IMG/VR virus record: IMGVR_UViG_3300042514_001262
Coordinates: 37,888-101,887 of that record
Origin: a virus
Strand: one strand, 5' to 3'
DNA: 64,000 nt
Positions 3,142-60,205 of this stretch are shown here, piece by piece. Within the stretch, counting starts at the first letter, position 1; every line of letters begins with the position of its first letter. The notes beneath the pieces were generated by a model. The model was not told the origin of the DNA. It did not search any database and was given only the letters and a program-made list of their open reading frames with translations. Position numbers and translations under genes: made by a program.

Positions 3142-5280
3142 TTAACAAGTTAAACACATTATATCATAGACAATTATTAATTCAACAATAATTTCTTGTC
3201 CGTTTAATGTATTGTCACCAGATTTAGTGTTAATAGTTATTTGATTATTTAATGAATCAATTGTTACTCCTCCAACACCAGGAACAGTCAATAATAAATT
3301 TTTAACTGTATCATAGTATAAGTTATCACTTGGTGCGCTAACCAATGTTGTACCTGTGAAGAAAGCATCGCTTGTTGTTAAACCTAATGGTTGTACACTC
3401 ACATTAACACTAAATACTGCAGATATCAAATCACAATTTGTTCCACCGCTAGTCAAATCGTTAAATCCTTCATTCAACATTTGAAGTAATCCATATTTTG
3501 TTTGTGATTGGATTACAAATTGTTCTCCACCCATAACATATGTTTGATAAGAAACATATTGAGTTTGGCAATCTATATTTGTAGTTCTGCTTAATGAACA
3601 CCCAATTGAATCAACAACTGTTAAACTATATGTTCCGGCAGTTAGTCCTGTTATTTGTATTTGTTGTGGATTACCCTGAACATTATTTGACCAATTGAAA
3701 TTAAATGGTGGTGTGCCTGTAGATATTAGAGCAGTTAAAGTTCCGTCCGAACCATTACCACATGAAGTGCTGTATAATGTAAAATCTAACGGGTCACTTT
3801 CACTAACATAAACTTGTGTTGTTTGTGTACATCCTGTTGCATCTGTAACGGTAACAGTGTGTTGACCTGAAGAAACATTTGTAAATGTTATTGCCGAAAG
3901 TGTCGTGTTAAAAACATTTTGAATCCCATCTAACGAATAATTGAATGGTGATTGCCCCCCATCTGTTTTTTCAACATAAACCGCACCATTACTTTGATTA
4001 CAAGTTGTTCCTGTAATTTCAGTAGTAATTTCAAAAGAATTTGTTGCAAATAAAGTAATTTCATCCGTGTAAGAACATCCCGACGAATCTTGAATTACAA
4101 CTGAATAAGTTCCTGTTGATAAATTACTAAATAATTGAGAAGTTTGACTATTAACAATATTAAGTGTGTTTCCATTGGGATATATTAAGGTGTATGTATA
4201 TGGTGAAACCCCTCCAGCAACTGAAACGGTTATTGAACCGTCGGTACTTGAACATGTTGAACCTTGACTTGATATTGTAACTGAAGCAATCCCAAGTGGT
4301 GTTAGTAATGTTGTACTAACAACTATACTACAAAAAGCGGAATCTGTTACCGAAATTGAATAATCCCCCGCAGATAATCCTGAAATTGACCATGTTTGAC
4401 CATATTGAATTTGAACATTACCTGTAGATGCAGAGTAATAATAAGGTGCAGTACCTCCAGTTATCTGAAGAGTTAAAACACCATCTGAAGAAAAACAAGT
4501 TGGTTGTGTCGCAGTAAACACACCAAACCCAAGAACATTAACATCAGTAACTACACCTGTTTGAGTTTGAGAACAACCCAAACTGTCTGTTACAACAACA
4601 GAATATGTCCCCGATGTTAATCCCGTAATACTACTTGTTGTGAACCCATTACTCCATAGATATGTGTAAGGTGCAACTCCTGTTTGTCCAGTTACAATAA
4701 TTTTTCCAATTGGCGTTCCCCCGCAACTTGAATTTGGAACAACATATAAACCATAATTAAAAGGTCCACTATCTTCCACAATAAAATCAGATGTCTTACC
4801 TGTACATCCCCCTAAATCTTGGGCTATCATATAATATGTTCCCGCAGTTAAATTGCCAAAAACTATGTTTGATGTATTAGTGTTTCCTGAATTTATGTAT
4901 GTATTGTCGGACAAATATAAATAAAAATTTGTTGACGAATAATTTGAAGAAGATGTGCTCGTTACCGAACCATTATCCAAACCACATGTGGTATTTTGGA
5001 CTGAAAGTACACTCGCACATACACCTGAAGAAACAGGGATGTTAATATAAAATTGTAAGTTTGTCGGTACGGTACTATCATTAACATTTACCGCATATGT
5101 ATCAGCACTTAATGAAGTTCTGATAGATGGATTAGTTGTTACAACATCAACACCCAAATTAGGTGATACCCATTGAACAGTATAGGGCGGTGTTCCTCCC
5201 GTTAGATATAATTCGACGGCACCAGAATTTGTATTCTGACAATCTCCCGTTATTATAATATTATAATTAAATGCCGACAT
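3142..5280 (-). CDS. SprB-repeat adhesin-like protein (putative fibre/receptor-binding protein)
   Basis: Repeated units with TC....G, GGT(A/P)PYTY.WSNG, GL(T/S)AGTYSV.VTD..GC, typical of Bacteroidota SprB repeats. Confidence 0.75.
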   Translation of the reverse strand: MSAFNYNIIITGDCQNTNSGAVELYLTGGTPPYTVQWVSPNLGVDVVTTNPSIRTSLSADTYAVNVNDSTVPTNLQFYINIPVSSGVCASVLSVQNTTCGLDNGSVTSTSSSNYSSTNFYLYLSDNTYINSGNTNTSNIVFGNLTAGTYYMIAQDLGGCTGKTSDFIVEDSGPFNYGLYVVPNSSCGGTPIGKIIVTGQTGVAPYTYLWSNGFTTSSITGLTSGTYSVVVTDSLGCSQTQTGVVTDVNVLGFGVFTATQPTCFSSDGVLTLQITGGTAPYYYSASTGNVQIQYGQTWSISGLSAGDYSISVTDSAFCSIVVSTTLLTPLGIASVTISSQGSTCSSTDGSITVSVAGGVSPYTYTLIYPNGNTLNIVNSQTSQLFSNLSTGTYSVVIQDSSGCSYTDEITLFATNSFEITTEITGTTCNQSNGAVYVEKTDGGQSPFNYSLDGIQNVFNTTLSAITFTNVSSGQHTVTVTDATGCTQTTQVYVSESDPLDFTLYSTSCGNGSDGTLTALISTGTPPFNFNWSNNVQGNPQQIQITGLTAGTYSLTVVDSIGCSLSRTTNIDCQTQYVSYQTYVMGGEQFVIQSQTKYGLLQMLNEGFNDLTSGGTNCDLISAVFSVNVSVQPLGLTTSDAFFTGTTLVSAPSDNLYYDTVKNLLLTVPGVGGVTIDSLNNQITINTKSGDNTLNGQEIIVELIIVYDIMCLTC

Positions 5281-36002: not shown

Positions 36003-39000
36003 TAGTTAAGTTTCGCTTTTGATATAAATACATTTGCAGGACTTTCGTCATTCCATGTTTTATTATTTGTGTTTTGGTTACCTGTCGCACCCAATCCTTT
36101 TATCAATGATTGTTGAGCATCTGTATTTGCATTCTCTGTTGTATAAGTAAATGTTCTTTTCTTTTTAAGACTAAATGGCGTATATTTTAAGAAATCTTTT
36201 AATCTATTTTTTTCCATATCCTCAATAAACGCTTTAGTAATTGTGTTTTCTTCTTCAAAAACAGATTTAACACTTACTTGATTAGGTGAACCTACTAACC
36301 AATACTCATCAAACGCATTACTAATAGCATTACCATCACCTTTTGTTAAAGCGGTATTATTAAGTATATTACCAATTAACGCATTTTTAAATGATTCATA
36401 TTTTTTACTATCGGTAACATCATTAGAAACAATCATATAAACTCTTCTAAAAACATAACCATTAGTATTACTATCAAATAATGAATTAGTACTAAATGGT
36501 GTGAATACTTGTTCTGTTGGGAACTTATAATTTGGTTCAAAAACTAATTTACCTGTATACGATTTAGCGTTGTATGTAAAAGTATTTGCACTCCATACAA
36601 CAGTATTAAATTCAGTGATACCACTTTTTATCTTTTTAATATCATTAATAAGTTCATTCATAGTGTTTGTAACACCTTGTGAACTTGGGTCTACTTCTGT
36701 TGTTCCTGATATTATATAAGAAACAACTTTTCCATCTTTTATTTGGTACCCATCAGTACCTGTGTCCGAATACCCAGGTACATTATATGATATAGTATTT
36801 ACCCTTCCAATATATCCAATATAACTTTGTTGAACGGAAACCATACCATTTGTTATGTTAGTAACAGCACTTTGAAAAGAACTTCTTTTGTTTTTAACAA
36901 AATTTGAATAGTTTTCTTGAACTTGGTTAACTAACCGATTTGAAAAATTTTTAGAAGGGTTCGAAATAAATTGAATAAATCCTTCATTTCCGTCTTTGAT
37001 GTCTTTCTCTAGTTGTCCAAAAATCTCATCAGTTCTTTTTTCTAAATTATAAGATTTACCAAATAAAATGGTGGGACTGTCTTTAGTTAATGTAAAATTA
37101 CCATTCTGATATGTCCTTTCCATCATCCATTGTTGACGAACGGCATTATTATATTGGTTTAAAGTTTCTCTATTTTTATTAACAACATTTGTAAAATATG
37201 ATTGTGTTTGTAATACCACCATATCCATAAATGTACTATAATTTATAGAACCAGTTTGACCTGTTTGACTTATAACATTACTTGTAACCGTACCAATTGG
37301 TTTATCATTACTTTGACCATTTTGTACTGGAGCTTGATTTATTGTCGGTGGTTGGACATTACTTCCAATTGTTTTAAGGAAATCGGCATCAATAACTTGA
37401 TAACTTAAATCCGTTGTGTCCGCTCTATCATCGTAAATTTCAGTATTAGCATAATAATTAAAAGTCAACGCGTTTTGTAATTTATCCACAGATTCTTTTA
37501 ATCCACTACCCCCAACAAAATTAAACGCTAATGTAACATTCGCAATCATTGGTTGAACTCCAATACCTTCAGGATTAATATCCAGATTTTCATAAGTGAT
37601 ACCCAATGATGTTGGGATTATTTTAGTATTATAAAAATCGCCTACTCTTAAAATCAATACTGGTGGTGCACCAAATGATGTATTTGTAGCATTACTATAG
37701 TCAGGGGCTGTAGTACCATTAACATTTTTAATTGTCGGAATGGTATCTCCAGGTCTCATACATTGTTGTAAGAAAGTCAATCTTGAGTTTAAACCTTCAG
37801 GTGTTATTGAGTGGAACGCTGGTTGGAAAAACTTGAGTTTGTCTTTCAAGTTATCATAAACCATTGGAGTATCTTGTTTTATAGTTTCAAAATAATCACA
37901 CTCAGATAATAAAGCTCGTAAAACTTTTTTACTTATATTGTTAGTGTCTTTTCTAACAACATTTGCCTCTGTTACAGGTTCGGTTTCAGTTTTTGTTACA
38001 ACATTACCTGTAACAACAGTAGTTTGTTTTGCCGGTAAAACCGCTGCGGGCGCTTTTAATGTTGATTGTATATTTGAGATATACGCTCTTCTGCAAGCCA
38101 TTGCGTTTGTAGTATAAATGTCTTTATTTAAAGATTGACTATTACCATCATTATCCCCACAAGACACACTACTACCAGGGACAAATTTTTGAGTTTTTTC
38201 GTCGTACCTTAATACTTGTGTAAATTCACCAAATCCTTGACCGACTTTAACAATCAATCTTTGTGGTGTCCCTGTTACGTATTTTGTCATCTTACTATTA
38301 CCTGTAATGTATATTGCCGCTGAGTTAATTCTCTTAGCGGATAAAATGTTGTTGTATGCCTGTTTTGCCGATGGTGAAGTACTACTATCAATTGTAATTG
38401 TTACAGTACCTTCAGGATTATTTTTAAATTGTTTGTCTAACTCATCTATCAATTCATCAATTTTATTTTTGTTTGGTGTAACTACACTATCAAAAAAAGA
38501 CGAAGTTTGTTGAGCAGTACTAGGTGATTGTTCACTATAGTATGTTTTTTGTCCAATATATGGTGTATAGGTATTTATAAAGTTTTCATTAAATTCCGCT
38601 GGTTTATCATTATTAAAATAAAACCCTACTTGTTCAAAACTTTTAAGTGTTGATTCAGGCGCACTACCAGTACCTTTATCACCAGATACTTGTGGTATTG
38701 TTTCAATTGTATTAACTGTATATTCAATTTGTTCTCTTGTTAATTCTTTTGAGGACAAAGCTTGTTGTATATCAAACAAGTCATTTGGTGGTATAGTATA
38801 ATATTTTTTAGCTAACTCATACAAGTCGTATTTTCTACATCCTGCAAAAAACGATTCCAATATAGAATCAATTCTAGTTTTATTTGTTTGGTCAGCCAAA
38901 ACTTTATTAACAATCACATTCAAAACTGAAGGATGGTCAACAACTATTTTCCACTGTAAGCTACCAGTTCTACTTGTATTTTTATATGTGTAAATTGGTT

Positions 39001-53221: not shown

Positions 53222-53951
53222 TAAATGTAAGGTTGAGAAACTATTAGAAAATTTCGTTAAAAAAAATAATAGTCCTGATGGGTGTGGAAATACTTGTAAT
53301 CAATGTAACAATGAGAGGGGAAGGAAATATCGTATTAAAAATAAAGAAAAAATAAAAAATTATTATATTGAAAATAAAGAAAAACACCAATCTTACAAAA
53401 AAGAACATTACACTAATAATAGAGAAAAAATAAAATCCAACAGTAAAGAATATTATATTAAAAATAAAGAAAAACAAATATCACAAAAAAAAGAATATTA
53501 TATTAAAAATAGAGAAAAAAAACTATCTAAACAGAAAGAATATAATATTAAAAATAAAGAAAATCTACAATCTTACCGTAATGAGTATGAAAGAAATAGA
53601 AAATTAAATGACCCTATTTATAAGTTATCAATTAATGTTAGAGATAGATTAAGAAAATATCTAAAGAGTGTAGGTATCACCAAGAATAAAAGAACATTTG
53701 ATATTGTTGGTTGTTCTCCACCTGAATTAAAAGAACATTTAGAAAAACAATTTGTGGATGGAATGTCTTGGGATAAAATGGGGAAAAAAATACATATTGA
53801 CCATATAATACCATTATCTTCCGCAAAAACAGAAGAAGATATATATAAATTAGCCCATTACACGAATCTTCAACCACTATGGGCTGAAGATAATTTGGCA
53901 AAATCAAACAAACTGGATTATTTATATACAACGGATAATCCAAAATTATGA
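53202..53951 (+). CDS. HNH homing-type endonuclease, copy 1
   Basis: N-terminal CSKC...CNQC zinc finger, KEYYIKNKEK repeats, HIDHIIPL...HYTNLQPLWAEDNLAK; GTG start. Confidence 0.88.
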   Translation: METKICSKCKVEKLLENFVKKNNSPDGCGNTCNQCNNERGRKYRIKNKEKIKNYYIENKEKHQSYKKEHYTNNREKIKSNSKEYYIKNKEKQISQKKEYYIKNREKKLSKQKEYNIKNKENLQSYRNEYERNRKLNDPIYKLSINVRDRLRKYLKSVGITKNKRTFDIVGCSPPELKEHLEKQFVDGMSWDKMGKKIHIDHIIPLSSAKTEEDIYKLAHYTNLQPLWAEDNLAKSNKLDYLYTTDNPKL

Positions 53952-55480
53952 AAAAAACACAAAAGAAAATCCAACAACTAGAAACACAAATACTTGAAAA
54001 CCACATTAACCAAGAAAAGAAGTTGTTGATTACAGAAATGAAAAAAATAGGGATAGAAAAATTACCTTACTCCTATTCAGCCTTGAAGACGTTTATTGAC
54101 CCTGAGACAATGAATCTACATTACAATAAACACTATAAAACATATGTGGATAAATTGAACGATGCCCTCGCAAAAAAAGAATACGGGGATTTAGATTTAG
54201 AAAAAATAATAAAAACAATCAGTCGTTTTGATAAGACAATAAGAAATAACGCTGGCGGTGCGTTTAATCATGCATTGTTTTGGAATTTCTTAACCCCAAT
54301 CCCAAAAAAACTTGAAGGTGACCTTTACAAGAAGATTACCAAACAATGGGGGACATTCACCAACTTCAAAAAAGAATTTGAAAAACAAGCCAAAGACCGA
54401 TTCGGTTCAGGATGGGTATGGCTAATACTAACTTCAAAAAATACTTTGAAGATTATGTCCACACCAAACCAAGATAACCCATTAATGAATGTAATTGAAG
54501 GTGGTGGATTTCCATTACTCGGATTAGATTTATGGGAACATGCTTATTACTTGAAATATAAAAACAAAAGAGATGAATACATTACAAACTTTTGGAAAGT
54601 TGTTAATTGGGATTTTGTTAGTAAAATGTATGAAATGAAAATTGAAACGAAATTGGCGGAATCAACCAAGATGAAACAAGTATTAACTGAAGGTAAATCT
54701 GAAATGTGTTCTTCTTCTGAAAATGAATTTTATAGAATGTTATTCAATGTTAATTCAGATATTAAATGGACTTACATGAATGGGATTAACAAAATTATGA
54801 AAGAAATGTTTTCTGAAAATTATATTTCAACACCCGAAAATGACCAATTACCTGGTGTCTATAATCTTGAGGGTCCTGGTAGGTCGGTAATCAATAAGTT
54901 AAATACAAATTATACTGCGTTCTGTATTTTGTTGAAGGATTTGAATAAAGTGATTGCAACTATTCCAAACAAGGTTCCAATAAACTTCATGGATAAAACT
55001 CCATCAGAGCAGAAAAAAGAGGTTGAAAGATTTATAAGAGCAATAGACCATTACAAATATAGAATATTTGATAAAGATAGTTCAACTCTTCATAACTTGT
55101 TAAGAACCTTAACTGAAAAAGATAAATCCGGTTCAAAAAGAGAAGCGATTACAGCCGCAATTATTAGAAGACATTTTGGCAACGAGTTTGAAGTTGAAAT
55201 AATAGGTGAGTTAGGAAGTAAGAAAGATGCCATCCAAGGAATAGATTTGGAATTAAAAAATAATGAGAAAAAATATACCGCTCAAATCAAACCTTTCAGA
55301 AATATTATTGTATCTGAAGATGGTATTACCTTAGAAGGAACTGCGAGTGTTAAGATTTATAACACAGACCTCATGATTTTTCAAAAAGGAAAGAATGTTT
55401 TAATATTTAATAAAAAACCAAAAATCGTAAGAGGTAATTTTGTGTTTCCTGTGGATTCACTAATGTACAATATACAATAA
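53948..55480 (+). CDS. Fe/Mn superoxide dismutase (Mn-type signature) fused to a C-terminal PD-(D/E)XK-like domain
   Basis: LPYSYSAL, HYNKH, NNAGGAFNH, FGSGW, NQDNP, DLWEHAYY; extra ~270 aa with E...D..QGID...TAQIKP. Confidence 0.85.
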   Translation: MKKTQKKIQQLETQILENHINQEKKLLITEMKKIGIEKLPYSYSALKTFIDPETMNLHYNKHYKTYVDKLNDALAKKEYGDLDLEKIIKTISRFDKTIRNNAGGAFNHALFWNFLTPIPKKLEGDLYKKITKQWGTFTNFKKEFEKQAKDRFGSGWVWLILTSKNTLKIMSTPNQDNPLMNVIEGGGFPLLGLDLWEHAYYLKYKNKRDEYITNFWKVVNWDFVSKMYEMKIETKLAESTKMKQVLTEGKSEMCSSSENEFYRMLFNVNSDIKWTYMNGINKIMKEMFSENYISTPENDQLPGVYNLEGPGRSVINKLNTNYTAFCILLKDLNKVIATIPNKVPINFMDKTPSEQKKEVERFIRAIDHYKYRIFDKDSSTLHNLLRTLTEKDKSGSKREAITAAIIRRHFGNEFEVEIIGELGSKKDAIQGIDLELKNNEKKYTAQIKPFRNIIVSEDGITLEGTASVKIYNTDLMIFQKGKNVLIFNKKPKIVRGNFVFPVDSLMYNIQ

Positions 55481-55504: not shown

Positions 55505-56626
55505 ATGGCAGTTATTCCAGAACCAGAAAGGTCAAAAATTTATACCAGAGTCAAACATTTATTGGGTGCCCCAATTAGGAGTGTTGAAATTGAAGATGAA
55601 ATGATGGATTCTTTAATGGAACTCTCTATACAAGATTATGAACAATATATCTTAAATTGGTTAATTGATAGTCAGTGGGTTAACTTGGTTAATCTTAATA
55701 TGACCGAAAAATCAGTTTCAAGAGCATTGATTACAAGAACAATGGATTTTGAACAACAATTCTCATATTCATATTCAAAAATCGTGGGTCTTCAGGCGGA
55801 AGGTCCTTGGGTATTAAAGAAAGATTATATCATTCTTGAACAGAACAAACAAAACTACGAAATCCCTGCTGGTCGTGAGATTAATGAAGTGTTATGGTTC
55901 AGTAATCAACCTATTACCGCATTTGGTATGGGTGGTATTGGGGGATTTGGTGGTGTAGGTCTTGGAGCCAACGAAGCTGGATTCGCTCAAATGGGATACC
56001 AAGGTTCTTATTTTATGATGTCAGGTTTTGATTATCTAATAAGAATGCAAGAATCAAACATTTTAAATAGAATTCTTGGAGGTTCTTTAACTTATAGAAT
56101 TACTGCATTACCTGATGGTAAAAAAGATTTACAACTATACAACGCACCTGGTAATCAATTTAATTGGGGTAACTATAGTCAATATGTTGGTAGAGCTGTG
56201 TGGTATTGGTATTACGATGTAACACCTGACAGTAGAGCCGATTGTTTAAAAAATAATCCTGATGTAATTAAATCACCAAATGATGTTCCATTAGAAGAAC
56301 TTACTTGGTCTGACTTAAATGTACCCGCACAACAATGGGTTAGAAGATGGTTTACCGCTTATGTTAAAGAAACATTAGGTAGAGTTAGAGGGAAATACAG
56401 TGGTAATTTAAAAACACCTGATTCTGAAATAACTATGGACTACACAAGTTTGTTGACCGAAGGTAAAGATGAAAAAACAAAATTAATAGAAGAACTTACA
56501 GGTGCTGAAGGTTGGTTAACAAGATTGAGACCTGAAAAAGTTATGGAAAGAGAAGCATTAATAGCTGAGAACTTAAATAAACAAATGAAGTTCAGAGCAA
56601 TGCCTCGTCAAATATATGTAATTTAA
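55505..56626 (+). CDS. Neck / head-tail adaptor protein (T4 gp13-like)
   Basis: LLGAPIRSVEIED N-terminus; KETLGRVRGKYSG C-terminal motif. Confidence 0.78.
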   Translation: MAVIPEPERSKIYTRVKHLLGAPIRSVEIEDEMMDSLMELSIQDYEQYILNWLIDSQWVNLVNLNMTEKSVSRALITRTMDFEQQFSYSYSKIVGLQAEGPWVLKKDYIILEQNKQNYEIPAGREINEVLWFSNQPITAFGMGGIGGFGGVGLGANEAGFAQMGYQGSYFMMSGFDYLIRMQESNILNRILGGSLTYRITALPDGKKDLQLYNAPGNQFNWGNYSQYVGRAVWYWYYDVTPDSRADCLKNNPDVIKSPNDVPLEELTWSDLNVPAQQWVRRWFTAYVKETLGRVRGKYSGNLKTPDSEITMDYTSLLTEGKDEKTKLIEELTGAEGWLTRLRPEKVMEREALIAENLNKQMKFRAMPRQIYVI

Positions 56627-56630
56627 TATT

Positions 56631-56966
56631 ATGGCAATTATAAGAACAATCCCGTCTACAAGATTAATCAACGGGGAAATTTTAAAAACATCAGAAGTAT
56701 CAATAGTATCCGAGTCGGAATATAGAACCAACGGAGAGGAATGTATTATTGTGAGAAATGTCAGTGAATCTACAATTATTTTGGATTCCAAAACAACTGA
56801 CCATATTGTGGTAAAGGCAATGACAAAAGTAACAATCAAACCTAATATAGGTAAGATTGATGAGGACTATGATGAAATAGTTGCCGACAAGTATGCTTGT
56901 ATTGAATTCAGATTTTGTGGTGGAAACTGGTATATTTTGTCGTCAGACGGATTGAAAAGTTCTTAA
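56631..56966 (+). CDS. Small hypothetical beta-rich protein
   Basis: 111 aa, 4 nt after the neck gene; ends GGNWYILS. Confidence 0.65.
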   Translation: MAIIRTIPSTRLINGEILKTSEVSIVSESEYRTNGEECIIVRNVSESTIILDSKTTDHIVVKAMTKVTIKPNIGKIDEDYDEIVADKYACIEFRFCGGNWYILSSDGLKSS

Positions 56967-57193
56967 TTTATTTCAAATTGAATCTATTTTCAACGAATTT
57001 TTATACACTACCTGTGCATTGGTAGGTGTCTATGACTTTCAAATTGTATCTATCTTCAACAGACCCTTGGACTATGCGCAGATTGTTGCGGGTGTCTATG
57101 ACTTTCAAATTGTATCTGTCTTCAACTTGGTATAGGTATATCCATCACAAAATGGTAGGTGTCTATGACTTTCAAATTGTATCTGTCTTCAAC
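56959..57193 (-). CRISPR. Orphan CRISPR-like mini-array, type VI-B-like repeat
   Basis: 36-nt repeat GTTGAAGAYAGATACAATTTGAAAGTCATAGACACC at 57158-57193, 57091-57126 and 57025-57060; degenerate terminal copy matches the adjacent repeat at 22/24 over 56971-56994; unique spacers of 31, 30 and 30 nt. Confidence 0.8.
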
Positions 57194-57442
57194 CCACTTA
57201 CCGATAACCTTTAGGGTATCAACCTTCTCCAGTCCGAAGTAGTCAGAAATTTCGTCTCTTAATTTGTAATAAACATATAAATATCCCGGTTTTTTCCATC
57301 CTAAAACACCATATTCCTCACCAGGAAAGTGAAAAACAATATCAACAAACTTACCTTTTTTTTGTTCAAGAGCACCGTATTCCGTATCCAAAAATTTGAA
57401 TATAACTTTATCTAATCTATTTTCTGTTATAATGTATTTCAT
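57122..57442 (-). CDS. Small hypothetical protein (MKYIITE leader) whose 3' end is the first array repeat
   Basis: 106 aa; TATTTAT 5 nt upstream; VEDRYNLKVIDT is encoded by repeat 1. Confidence 0.8.
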   Translation of the reverse strand: MKYIITENRLDKVIFKFLDTEYGALEQKKGKFVDIVFHFPGEEYGVLGWKKPGYLYVYYKLRDEISDYFGLEKVDTLKVIGKWVEDRYNLKVIDTYHFVMDIPIPS

Positions 57443-57481
57443 TAATAATAAATATTAGAAAATATTTTTTATTACCTTTTC

Positions 57482-60205
57482 TTAAATTATTGTTGCTAGA
57501 TTATCTTGCCAACCATCTTCTGCTAAGTCATACATATAGTCAGAACTTAAACCTCGTTTTTCCCAATAAGACATTTCAGCGTCTGTAATTGCTAACACAT
57601 CTTCCAACTTATCTTGGTCAGAATCTTCAAATGGTAACCCATTTATTAATTCACACTGAGCGGTTGTAAAGATACCTCTTTGTTCAGGGTCATTTACAAT
57701 TAAACCATTTCTAACCTCATCTTTAAAACAAACCAATAATGGCTCAATTCTTTTATTAAATGTTGTTATTGCTCTCGGCACATTATAATCACCTGTTAGA
57801 TTAGGGTCGTTATCTAAAATATCTTTATCTAACATATAACAATTAATTTGAACACCATCACCTTTCTTTTGAACATCACCGTGAGATGATTTAATACCAT
57901 TGTTAACATACAAAATAACATCACCCAAACTCACATTTAAGTTTGACTGTAAAGCTAACTCCATGTGAGCCATACGACTCATACTATTACCTGATTTAGT
58001 TTTTTCTGTTAAACGTTTCTTATAGTCCTCCATTGACAACTTAACCTTAGCTCTTTGAGCAATCTTACTTAACGGTATTTTCTTATCAAAGATTGTTTGT
58101 AAATACTCATAGTAGTATTCCACAAATGATTTACCGTCACCCTGAAGTAACATCTTAATTCCTTTATCCAAAAAAGCCTCAATATATAGTGGAAGTTTTT
58201 TTGATTTAATACTATTACCCGTTAATTTGATTTTACCTTTAGAATCCATAACGGCATAGTTCTTACGAGCCAAGTTAATACATGAAGGCCAAACCCCATC
58301 AGTATCAAGAGCCATTTCACCTCTCATGAAGATATCATTATACTCCGCAACATCCGCTTCAGGACCATAGTATTCTTTACCTTCTTTAACCTTCCAATTT
58401 AACCCACGACCAACATATACCCTATCCTTCGCATCTGGCGGAGTTGAAAAGTTCACTCCGTCCGTATCCATTACCAAAGGAACATAACCTTTAGTCATGA
58501 AGAACTTAATCATTTGACGAAGGTATTGTCTACCCGTACAAGTAATCTGTTCTCCCATATACATGTCACCCCAAGCATAAACCTGTGGTGCCGACAAAGC
58601 TCCGAACATGGAGTTAATAAAAATTTTAATTGGTAATTGTTTGTTACCGTATGATTCAGATTTTTTACGGTCTGTCTCATAAAACTCTTCCGCAAGTTGT
58701 TTGTATTTGATACGAGTGTCACGGAAATACTTTAACATTCCTTTCATTGCACCTGTTACATCACAGTCGGGGAATACATCGTGTACCAACTGAATAGAGG
58801 GATATAGAGACGAGAAGTCAAGTTTGAGAACATCTTTAGAGTAACCAACCTTAAGTAGTCGTGAAAGACCCCCTACGAAGTCTGTCTTACCTTGTTTCTC
58901 AGGAATGGCAAGTCCATGTTTATAAGACCAAGCCAACATCAACATCTTCCATAATGTTGCGGTTCCCATGGTTGAAACCCTTTCATATGTTGTTGGAATC
59001 ATCGCAGCCAACAAGAATGAACCTTGGTTGAACTCTTGGTCAACCTTTAGGGTTTCATCTAAGTCATCGTCAAGATACATCTCAACTAACTTGTCACCTG
59101 TAATTTTGTTATAAACATCAGAGCGTTTTGAACACGCATCATCAATCTTTGAATCAACCCCAACTTTCTTGTACTTACCGTTTTGAGTGTTTAACCAAAA
59201 ATCTTCTTTCTTCACATAAAATGGTCCGATATCCAAATGGTCAATATAAACACGGTCAGGAGCTTCAGCGTTAATATACTTGGTAATATATTTCAAACCC
59301 GCAGCTTTAATACTTGAGTTAATCGCCTGAGCCCTACGAACCGCATGGATAATATCAATTACATTGTAACCCCAAATTGAAGTTTGGGTAAAAGTTTCTA
59401 CCTCATTCGCAAGCTTTAACATACTATCTTTTCTTGTGAATGAATGGTCGGGGTGTAATGACTTACATATTTTCTTTGGGTCAATTCCCAATATATTACA
59501 TCTTTCAAAAATCCAATGCCAGTCAAAGTTTGCCGAATTATATCCACCAATTATACTTGGTTTTAATTCGTTAATCACTCTAAAAAATTCAATGATTGCA
59601 TTTTTTTCTTCTCTCTCATCCATACACTCAATCACTCGGTGATAACCCTTGTTTGTTTTAATTCCAATCATGAAGATACGACCATCCTTTGGTTCAAGAG
59701 CGGTCGTCTCCAAGTCATATACAAGTCGGGTCACTTCGTCATAGTTCTCGAAACCCTTAAATAATCGTTTTTCTTTTGAGATGAGATATTGTTCTACAGG
59801 AGGTAGAATCATTACTTTGTCTTTAGTTTTTTCTCCCCATGGGTCACATCCACCTTCTCTGAAGAATTGGATAAGTTCTCTATAACCTTTAAGTGATTTA
59901 ACCATGAACGTCATACCGTTCTGTAATCTTTCATTACCGTGGGTCTCCAATTTGTCAATCATAATACCATGTTTGGTCATGGCTTCTTTCTGAGCTGCTT
60001 TTGAATTACCGTAAAAGTTAATACCACGCAGGTCACCTACCCAAGCGAATGGGGTGAATGTATCTTTACGGATTTCTTTTCCCTTACCGGGTATTTCACG
60101 TACCTTGTAAATGGAATTTTCGCGATAATCGTATTCTATTGCGACTATAAATTCTTCGGGGTCATTCCCGTGTAAGAACGATTCAATTTCTTCGTTTGAT
60201 ATCAT
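57482..60205 (-). CDS. Family B DNA polymerase
   Basis: Exo DLETT and GYNSANFD; pol DFSSLYPS, KIFINSMFG, MDTDG, KNYA. Confidence 0.96.
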   Translation of the reverse strand: MISNEEIESFLHGNDPEEFIVAIEYDYRENSIYKVREIPGKGKEIRKDTFTPFAWVGDLRGINFYGNSKAAQKEAMTKHGIMIDKLETHGNERLQNGMTFMVKSLKGYRELIQFFREGGCDPWGEKTKDKVMILPPVEQYLISKEKRLFKGFENYDEVTRLVYDLETTALEPKDGRIFMIGIKTNKGYHRVIECMDEREEKNAIIEFFRVINELKPSIIGGYNSANFDWHWIFERCNILGIDPKKICKSLHPDHSFTRKDSMLKLANEVETFTQTSIWGYNVIDIIHAVRRAQAINSSIKAAGLKYITKYINAEAPDRVYIDHLDIGPFYVKKEDFWLNTQNGKYKKVGVDSKIDDACSKRSDVYNKITGDKLVEMYLDDDLDETLKVDQEFNQGSFLLAAMIPTTYERVSTMGTATLWKMLMLAWSYKHGLAIPEKQGKTDFVGGLSRLLKVGYSKDVLKLDFSSLYPSIQLVHDVFPDCDVTGAMKGMLKYFRDTRIKYKQLAEEFYETDRKKSESYGNKQLPIKIFINSMFGALSAPQVYAWGDMYMGEQITCTGRQYLRQMIKFFMTKGYVPLVMDTDGVNFSTPPDAKDRVYVGRGLNWKVKEGKEYYGPEADVAEYNDIFMRGEMALDTDGVWPSCINLARKNYAVMDSKGKIKLTGNSIKSKKLPLYIEAFLDKGIKMLLQGDGKSFVEYYYEYLQTIFDKKIPLSKIAQRAKVKLSMEDYKKRLTEKTKSGNSMSRMAHMELALQSNLNVSLGDVILYVNNGIKSSHGDVQKKGDGVQINCYMLDKDILDNDPNLTGDYNVPRAITTFNKRIEPLLVCFKDEVRNGLIVNDPEQRGIFTTAQCELINGLPFEDSDQDKLEDVLAITDAEMSYWEKRGLSSDYMYDLAEDGWQDNLATII

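Follow-up and report, generated by a model that had tools for sequence, protein, structure and literature searches.

The 64,000-nucleotide (nt) stretch of phage DNA analysed here (the window, positions 37,888 to 101,887 of the IMG/VR record IMGVR_UViG_3300042514_001262) carries on its minus strand, at 56959-57193, three 36-nt repeats and one degenerate copy that start within the last codons of a gene for a protein of 106 amino acids and have no cas genes beside them. The question is whether this element is a CRISPR array, and how a single stretch of 36 nt can serve both as codons and as a repeat.

The repeat-spacer units measure 67, 66 and 66 nt (Table 1), and the occurrence of three 36-nt repeats at such spacing is far beyond chance. 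The same architecture was seen again in independent metagenomes, and 29 distinct spacers of 28-32 nt were collected across relatives. The first spacer is translated together with the repeat that precedes it; its base 31 and the GT of the second repeat form a serine codon, which is followed by TGA. The generic features of CRISPR are present, namely near-identical direct repeats of 23-50 nt with unique spacers of similar length, a degenerate terminal repeat and a polarised turnover. Where an AT-rich non-coding leader would be expected, upstream of the first repeat, lies the coding body of the 106-residue gene. Rfam gave no match on the array, and neither an anti-repeat resembling a trans-activating CRISPR RNA nor an additional solitary repeat was found in the 101-kb record. 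A previous sequence-only reading of this DNA had described the repeats and spacers, the synonymous GAC/GAT difference, the degenerate copy VENRFNLK-stop, the three alternative tails (YHFVMDIPIPS, RNNLRIVQGS and YQCTGSV-stop) and the in-frame TGA that results from the length of the 31-nt spacer; every one of these details was correct on re-examination.

Table 1. Features of the gene-array locus and its immediate neighbours (window coordinates).
Feature	Position	Strand	Description
106-residue phage gene	57122..57442	-	Residues 1-83 body, 84-95 repeat-encoded, 96-106 spacer-encoded; N-terminus MKYIITE
Gene body in CRISPR leader position	57194..57442	-	Directly upstream of repeat 1; spacers differ on the gene side in the window, L004, L056, L006, P0038 and P0003
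Repeat 1, leader-proximal	57158..57193	-	Codons 84-95 (VEDRYNLKVIDT) of the 106-residue gene
Spacer 1, 31 nt, newest	57127..57157	-	Translated YHFVMDIPIP(S); unmatched in INPHARED, IMG/VR and the related loci
Repeat 2	57091..57126	-	Identical to repeat 1; its GT-TGA gives the stop codon of the 106-residue gene
Spacer 2, 30 nt	57061..57090	-	In frame RNNLRIVQGS into repeat 3; likewise unmatched
Repeat 3	57025..57060	-	One change, GAC>GAT, synonymous (Asp)
Spacer 3, 30 nt, oldest	56995..57024	-	Reads YQCTGSV-stop; common to L004 and L056
Degenerate terminal repeat, leader-distal	56959..56994	-	26/36 bases match; reads VENRFNLK-stop; identical in L004 and L056
Convergent 111-residue open reading frame	56631..56966	+	From the list of open reading frames; final codons, stop included, lie within the degenerate terminal repeat; array boundary
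Family-B DNA polymerase gene	57482..60205	-	Pfam PF00136 and PF03104; co-oriented, 40 nt upstream of the 106-residue gene

Comparison with related loci showed that the array grows from the gene outwards. The window and the loci L004 and L056 have the gene-distal spacer and the degenerate terminal repeat in common, followed on the gene side by two, one and four unrelated spacers, respectively. Likewise, the distal unit is common to L052, L053, L057 and L058, and the proximal units differ. The second spacer of L006 is encountered as the first tail of the homologous protein P0038, the third spacer of L056 is the first tail of P0003, and several homologs end with the bare distal unit. Variation was also found within populations when the contigs of four sequencing runs were compared with the locus. 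A contig of 1,040 nt from the lake run X17 agrees with the window at every base of the two flanks but is shorter by exactly 133 nt, corresponding to two units, so that only the oldest spacer is left; contigs of runs X2 and X5 stop inside the repeats, as expected at a branching assembly graph. The locus is thus variable both between related phages and within lake populations. Spacer gain is polar and takes place at the gene end. The anatomy and the dynamics of the array are firmly established by these observations. The sequence-only reading had also proposed that the gene end may be a decoy drawing off host adaptation, or else that recombination between repeats swaps the C-terminal peptides. 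The 133-nt deletion variant fits with the second of these, but recombination is not needed to obtain the nested arrays. In three lake runs, contigs of relatives of 85-90% similarity join position 56936 to 57504, skipping 567 nt; because of these joints, some relatives may be devoid of the whole gene and array, or may carry a replacement.

The association of gene and array is a property of the family. A search of 5.8 billion proteins yielded 139 homologs, down to 54% identity. The motif W-VEDR(Y/H)NLKVI(N/D)T occurs at the same place in 118 of the 120 homologs listed (P0001-P0120), as expected from the earlier proposal that the repeat is conserved as a peptide, and is followed by 99 different spacer-encoded tails. 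The array DNA that could be recovered from IMG/VR and JGI metagenomes (L004/L005, L006/L059, L050-L058) always lies directly after a homolog of the 106-residue gene. More distant homologs, with about 30-38% identity, likewise begin an array at the gene end, with repeats that have diverged but are recognisably related (L017/L046, L030/L031/L033, L013/L025, L026); the repeat is WLEETYNLKGLTP in L017 and L046, and WVEQHLELGGITP in L013 and L025. In several loci the modules stand in tandem as gene-array-gene-array, and L052 has two, with distinct repeat variants. In L013 (6001-7413), four paralogous genes in a row each have the repeat as their end, then zero or one spacer, and a truncated repeat abutting the next ATG. 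Further tandem modules were noticed in L050 and, after the array, in L059 and L055. Additional repeat-spacer units of the same type occur near position ~6077 of L030 and ~4437 of L046, 1.4-1.8 kb from the main arrays, and probably belong to other paralogous modules.

Integration by Cas1-Cas2 has a signature that is seen here: the inserts are unique, a 36-nt site is duplicated exactly, the distal repeat has decayed and the polarity is strict. As the enzyme itself was not observed, its identity as Cas1-Cas2 is inferred. On balance, the locus is probably a genuine and currently growing CRISPR mini-array devoid of cas genes, whose leader is a protein gene and whose leader-proximal repeat is made up of the final 36 conserved bases in the coding sequence of that gene.

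The class of the repeat points in the same direction. In type VI-B arrays, as they were defined, repeats measure 36 nt and spacers 30 nt; the CRISPR RNA has 66 nt, its spacer lying 5' of the repeat, and the repeat has an open loop rich in U and the complementary ends GUUG and CAAC (10.1101/092577). The phage array resembles them in its 36-nt repeat, spacers of about 30 nt, 66-nt unit, 5' GTTG, internal stem and leader-to-array orientation, and its central U-rich core TTTGAA(A/G)G is at the same register as in Cas13b arrays. It differs in ending with CACC, in overlapping a gene and in residing in a phage, with no Cas13b in the available phage sequence. In single-sequence folds, the loop AAUUUGAA is closed by a stem of 3-6 bp in the phage repeat types A-C, as in the arrays of the genomes G001 and G154, and the internal stems of the different lineages occupy different columns. 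A pattern that fixed only GTTG, TTTGRARG and CAMC at the phage register was searched in 401 Bacteroidia genomes, and arrays were found in three of them. In one of the three, the Chryseobacterium genome G001, the array is located downstream of a Cas13b gene (NF038190, 914 bits), at a distance of 125 nt. The window repeat is identical to the three bacterial repeats at 20-24 of 36 positions (56-67%), with 20 of 36 for the Cas13b-adjacent array, compared to 22-25 of 36 among the three bacterial repeats themselves, whereas shuffled controls averaged 10 and reached 21 at most; as the search pattern fixes 16 of the 36 positions, these values are partly circular and denote a resemblance of class, not an identity. 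The Cas13b-adjacent array (L145:14269-15029) shows several repeat variants on the cas13b-proximal side and at least five identical repeats on the far side, and may consist of two arrays or have an unusual polarity.

A precedent exists for the extension of such arrays by the integrase of another CRISPR system. The VI-B array of Flavobacterium columnare has no cas1/cas2 of its own, and its extension in trans by the Cas1-Cas2 of a type II-C system was shown experimentally; the VI-B and II-C repeats have in common a leader-distal motif, GTTGT on the opposite strand (PMC8092290). At that leader-distal position, the phage repeats have GGTGT.

Besides the circularity just mentioned, several observations weigh against a genuine array fed by a CRISPR system. 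The 3' end of the phage repeat is CACC instead of the CAAC of VI-B repeats, which introduces a U-C mismatch at pair 2-35 of the terminal stem, and the comparison was made with VI-B-like repeats. No array of the repeat family was present in 185,579 bacterial and archaeal genomes, one per species, although arrays assemble poorly in metagenome-assembled genomes; in the same set the strict repeat pattern had no match, and a loose pattern matched 73 single sites, none within an array, compared to a rough chance estimate of about 100. All but one of the array-bearing phage records are fragments, 6-33% complete, in which a cas module could lie elsewhere in the phage genome. No protospacer for the 29 spacers was found in the phage's own 101 kb or in 45 related loci: the best score of blastn-short and ungapped scans was 22/31, equal to that of shuffled controls. 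No protospacer was found either when the window array was compared with INPHARED by blastn, or when five spacer cores were searched in IMG/VR by exact or local search. Finally, identity at third codon positions among close relatives was barely higher in the repeat (0.87) than in the gene body (0.84), in a test of low power.

Searches with profiles for Cas13b (NF038190) and Cas1 (PF01867), for which positive controls worked, gave nothing over the cut-off in the 101-kb record, the array-bearing fragments or three relatives that are complete according to CheckV (309-321 kb). One of the latter, G408 (locus L026), has a one-spacer unit. A weak Cas1 match in G408, of 13 bits, fell short of the cut-off and was set aside. 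Searches with the tail peptides against six-frame translations recovered other arrays and no targets.

The failure to find a cas gene, a matching cellular array or a protospacer, together with a gene of no known fold or family, would be consistent with a process foreign to CRISPR, in which spaced copies of the gene end are made by an enzyme of the phage or arise when replication slips and switches template. This is very improbable given the exact 36-nt duplications around unique inserts of 28-32 nt, the degenerate distal repeat and the strict polarity, which are those of Cas1-Cas2, and given the repeat register and core in common with true Cas13b arrays.

How the repeat came to be coding can be approached through homologs that have no array. 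Seven of them (L015, L018, L027, L028, L032, L034 and L035) keep the motif W-x-E-x-x-(Y/F)-x-(V/L)-K-V and end 1-7 residues later. As the motif is part of a confidently predicted AlphaFold2 fold and is kept in these array-less homologs, the gene end probably came first and became an integration site later. Neither of the findings that would have contradicted the sequence-only reading, an invariant locus and a repeat peptide lost from array-less homologs, was made, and a de novo array at the gene end is the more parsimonious origin. In the tree, array-bearing genes fall into at least three groups, namely the window clade, in which 31 of the 31 sampled members have arrays, L026 with L030, L017 and L046, and L013 with L025. 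The array-less genes are on much longer branches, and two to four gains or losses are needed. Off-target integration by Cas1-Cas2 at repeat-like sites is documented, and the spontaneous formation of CRISPR loci has been proposed on this basis (PMC6698737, citing Nivala et al. 2018, PMC5832444).

The comparison of repeat types suggests that the nucleotides, and not only the peptide, are under selection. The window-type repeat begins at the codon after the Trp (GTT GAA ... GAC ACC), whereas those of L017, L046 and L030 begin one base earlier, with the last G of TGG (G TTG GAA ... ACA CC). Despite this one-base shift of frame, both types are 36 nt long, start with GTTG and end with ACACC, and the last residues are D-T in one and T-P in the other. 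It is the retention of the ends and of the length while the encoded residues change that points to selection on the DNA or RNA. The type GGTG...CACC of L013 and L025 forms a perfect terminal stem of four pairs, whereas the other types have one U-C mismatch. In the simplest reading, the gene end has been under a double constraint since it became an integration site.

Under another explanation, on which these same data bear, the arrays would be scars, either neutral or somewhat harmful: the required VEDRYNLKV C-terminus would resemble a host repeat by chance and the host Cas1-Cas2 would mis-integrate there, with repeated gain and loss and no function for the phage. The motif is indeed kept as protein, array-less homologs included; the arrays are short (1-5 spacers) and turn over rapidly; spacer targets were not found in the searches; synonymous sites show no extra conservation among close relatives; the tree requires several gains or losses; and integration at repeat-like sites is known (PMC6698737). 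Against it stand the preservation of the GTTG and ACACC ends and of the 36-nt length across a frame shift that changes the residues, the paired GGTG...CACC variant of L013 and L025, the tandem duplication of whole gene-array modules, and the presence of arrays in 31 of 31 sampled members of the window clade. This explanation is considered rather unlikely.

The consequences of spacer acquisition for the protein were examined on the tail peptides of the 120 listed homologs, most of which are available as protein and not as DNA. The length of the spacer determines where translation ends. A 29-nt spacer puts the next repeat in the +1 frame, which reads LKIDTI-stop and accounts for 30 tails of 16 residues; a 31-nt spacer leads to an immediate TGA (13 tails of 11 residues); and a 30-nt spacer allows readthrough into a second VEDR...T (17 tails). 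None of the 99 distinct tails is shorter than six residues: there are no stops in about 594 codon positions, and stops appear only from codon 7 on. At spacer codons 7-10, about 6% of the codons are stops, close to the 5% in pooled spacer DNA, and older internal spacers do have stops at codons 1-2 (the third spacer of L053 and the second of L056). As no stop is found in the first six codons compared to about 5-6% per codon elsewhere, there is selection against termination of translation in the roughly 18 nt that follow the first repeat. This six-codon rule can be read in two ways: a terminating ribosome must not cover the repeat, or the protein needs a short tail.

Diversification of the C-terminus, the other outcome proposed in the sequence-only reading, is therefore real as a consequence, with 99 tails, but nothing points to it as the purpose. 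The tails end where the spacer length (28-32 nt) sets the frame; the sole sign of selection on them is that the frame never closes within six codons of the repeat. A programmed diversification, in which spacer capture or repeat recombination would vary the tail of a possibly injected protein so that it escapes recognition by host defences, could make use of the many tails on an otherwise conserved core of 95 residues, and the lack of early stops would suit it, as would the N-terminal and protease features of an injected protein that are presented below. It is nevertheless improbable, since tail length and end follow mechanically from spacer length, the tails have no motif in common, the array-less homologs end 1-7 residues past the motif and no diversification enzyme was found.

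The 106-residue protein was modelled with AlphaFold2 from 48 homologs, with a predicted local distance difference test (pLDDT) score of 92.8. The model consists of a helix (4-22), four strands (26-57) and two further helices (59-69 and 73-88). Residues 84-95, encoded by the repeat, account for the end of the last helix and for the stretch at the C-terminus; this block has a pLDDT of 97. No function, family or fold was suggested by Pfam, PHROGs, Foldseek against the PDB or the ESM Atlas; a wide search with VIA-align gave a best Z of 5.1, with weak helical rows resembling DNA-binding proteins, and no function. All look-alikes of the protein are viral.

The family is otherwise 25-30% identical, and the N-terminus (57422-57442) stands out, with M1, K2, I5 and E7 conserved at 90% or more. 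The internal proteins of phage T4 carry an N-terminal capsid-targeting sequence with an (L/I)-x-E site that is cut by the prohead protease. By analogy, MKYIITE may be a capsid-targeting and cleavage signal, and the protein may be injected; a T4-type prohead protease (PF03420) is encoded in the three complete relatives (G408-G410). Like the T4 internal proteins, the proteins of this family are small, fast-evolving and often encoded by tandem paralogs, and their near-invariant N-terminus contains an I-x-E site. The likeness is one of such features and serves as a lead to possible packaging in the capsid.

The following mechanism is proposed. An integrase of the Cas1-Cas2 type would insert the spacers of about 30 nt, whose insertion is evident from the related loci, at the junction between the gene body and the first repeat; the 36-nt repeat would thereby be duplicated and the older spacers pushed away from the gene. 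The integrase and any effector would be those of the host, probably a member of the Bacteroidota with a type II-C adaptation module that serves VI-B (Cas13b) arrays, since the repeat is VI-B-like in its size, unit, GTTG and TTTGAA core and neither Cas13b nor Cas1 is found in the phage lineage. Gene and array would be transcribed as one RNA, and the phage would thereby produce guide RNAs of the Cas13b type, or mimics of the repeat, by which the host effector is occupied or redirected. Each new spacer would rewrite the C-terminal tail, as is seen among the homologs, apparently as a by-product, with the frame remaining open for at least six codons past the repeat. The gene end would have existed first and been made into a repeat by off-target integration. 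The array may benefit the phage by guide hijack or as a decoy, or not at all.

Transcription is best considered with the neighbouring genes. The co-oriented polymerase gene (Table 1) is the likely transcription context of the 106-residue gene and the array. No terminator-like site was found in 56500-57700, and a scan for sigma-70 promoters scored no better on this DNA than on shuffled sequences. The RNA run X18 provided only two contigs of 151 nt, one on the gene body (57221-57371) and one on the neighbouring open reading frame; none lies on the array, which indicates neither that the array is transcribed nor that it is not.

A more ambitious version of the mini-array interpretation would see in the gene end an evolved leader-repeat module and no accident. 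A family of freshwater jumbo phages without cas genes would have the host Cas1-Cas2 write spacers into it and would feed Cas13b-type guides or mimics from the 3' end of an mRNA, and translation would be coupled to guide biogenesis by a ribosome that runs at least six codons past the first repeat to leave it free. Taken as a whole, this version is unlikely. If true, it would describe the first type VI-like array found in viruses. In the 2023 survey of viral repeat units with SRUFinder, open reading frames were masked before the search and no type VI units were found in viruses (PMC10651486).

Mini-CRISPR arrays without cas genes are known in viruses (Medvedeva et al. 2019, PMC6858448), and huge phages are known to carry compact arrays (Al-Shayeb et al. 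2020, PMC7162821). The present arrays resemble them in having 1-5 spacers and no adaptation or interference genes, in a presumed use of host Cas proteins, and in spacers that differ between close relatives. They differ in that the leader is a protein gene, the first repeat is translated and the gene-array modules occur in tandem, and also in that no host array with the same repeat and no match of a spacer to a rival virus were found in the searches. In the literature searched, no description was found of an array that has a protein gene as its leader and a first repeat whose translation is a conserved segment of that gene's product. RNA anti-CRISPRs (Racrs) are solitary repeat units in phages that mimic CRISPR repeats (Camara-Wilpert et al. 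2023, PMC10651486). By analogy, the phage repeat could tie up host Cas proteins, and its imperfect end could give rise to aberrant complexes. Racrs, however, are single non-coding repeats behind a promoter, whereas the present repeat codes for protein and has behind it real spacers that turn over. The resemblance to off-target integration is that a repeat-like site outside CRISPR is used, duplicated and able to seed an array. The events described there (PMC6698737; Nivala et al. 2018) took place in the laboratory, in plasmids or chromosomes, whereas the present case is natural and long-lived, across a family of phage genes with a protein divergence of about 70%.

It follows from these arrays that a CRISPR leader and first repeat can be coding, one stretch of 36 nt being both codons and integration site, and that array finders and surveys of viral repeats that mask open reading frames will miss such loci. 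As a natural and long-lived case, they illustrate how a repeat-like site may give birth to an array, and the requirements of Cas1-Cas2 at the leader-repeat junction can be studied on at least 99 variants provided by nature. If the repeats do engage Cas13b, the phage would use or sabotage an RNA-targeting CRISPR system, for which a single protein inhibitor is reported (10.1101/2024.11.17.623997).

The source record, of 101,887 bp, is about 33% complete according to CheckV, and the window, with a G+C content of 33%, is its 3' two-thirds. Because the window encodes a tail sheath, a baseplate J protein and replication genes (a family-B DNA polymerase and a DnaB-like helicase, alongside a ribonucleotide reductase, an SNF2 helicase and a protein with SprB repeats), the phage is classified from its gene content as a large myovirus. 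The SprB repeats (PF13573) are in a 712-residue protein (3142-5280) near the tail genes and hint at a host among the Bacteroidota. A 510-residue protein (53948-55480) contains a complete Fe/Mn superoxide dismutase (PF00081 and PF02777) at residues 36-226, followed by about 280 residues without assignment. The 373-residue open reading frame at 55505-56626 matches PHROG 211, the head-tail adaptor Ad2 (E 4.5e-10), which places the gene-array module where the replication module borders on the structural one. Phages of this group are common in lakes; the region is present in 17 DNA runs of lakes or fresh water, which come from about 16 studies.

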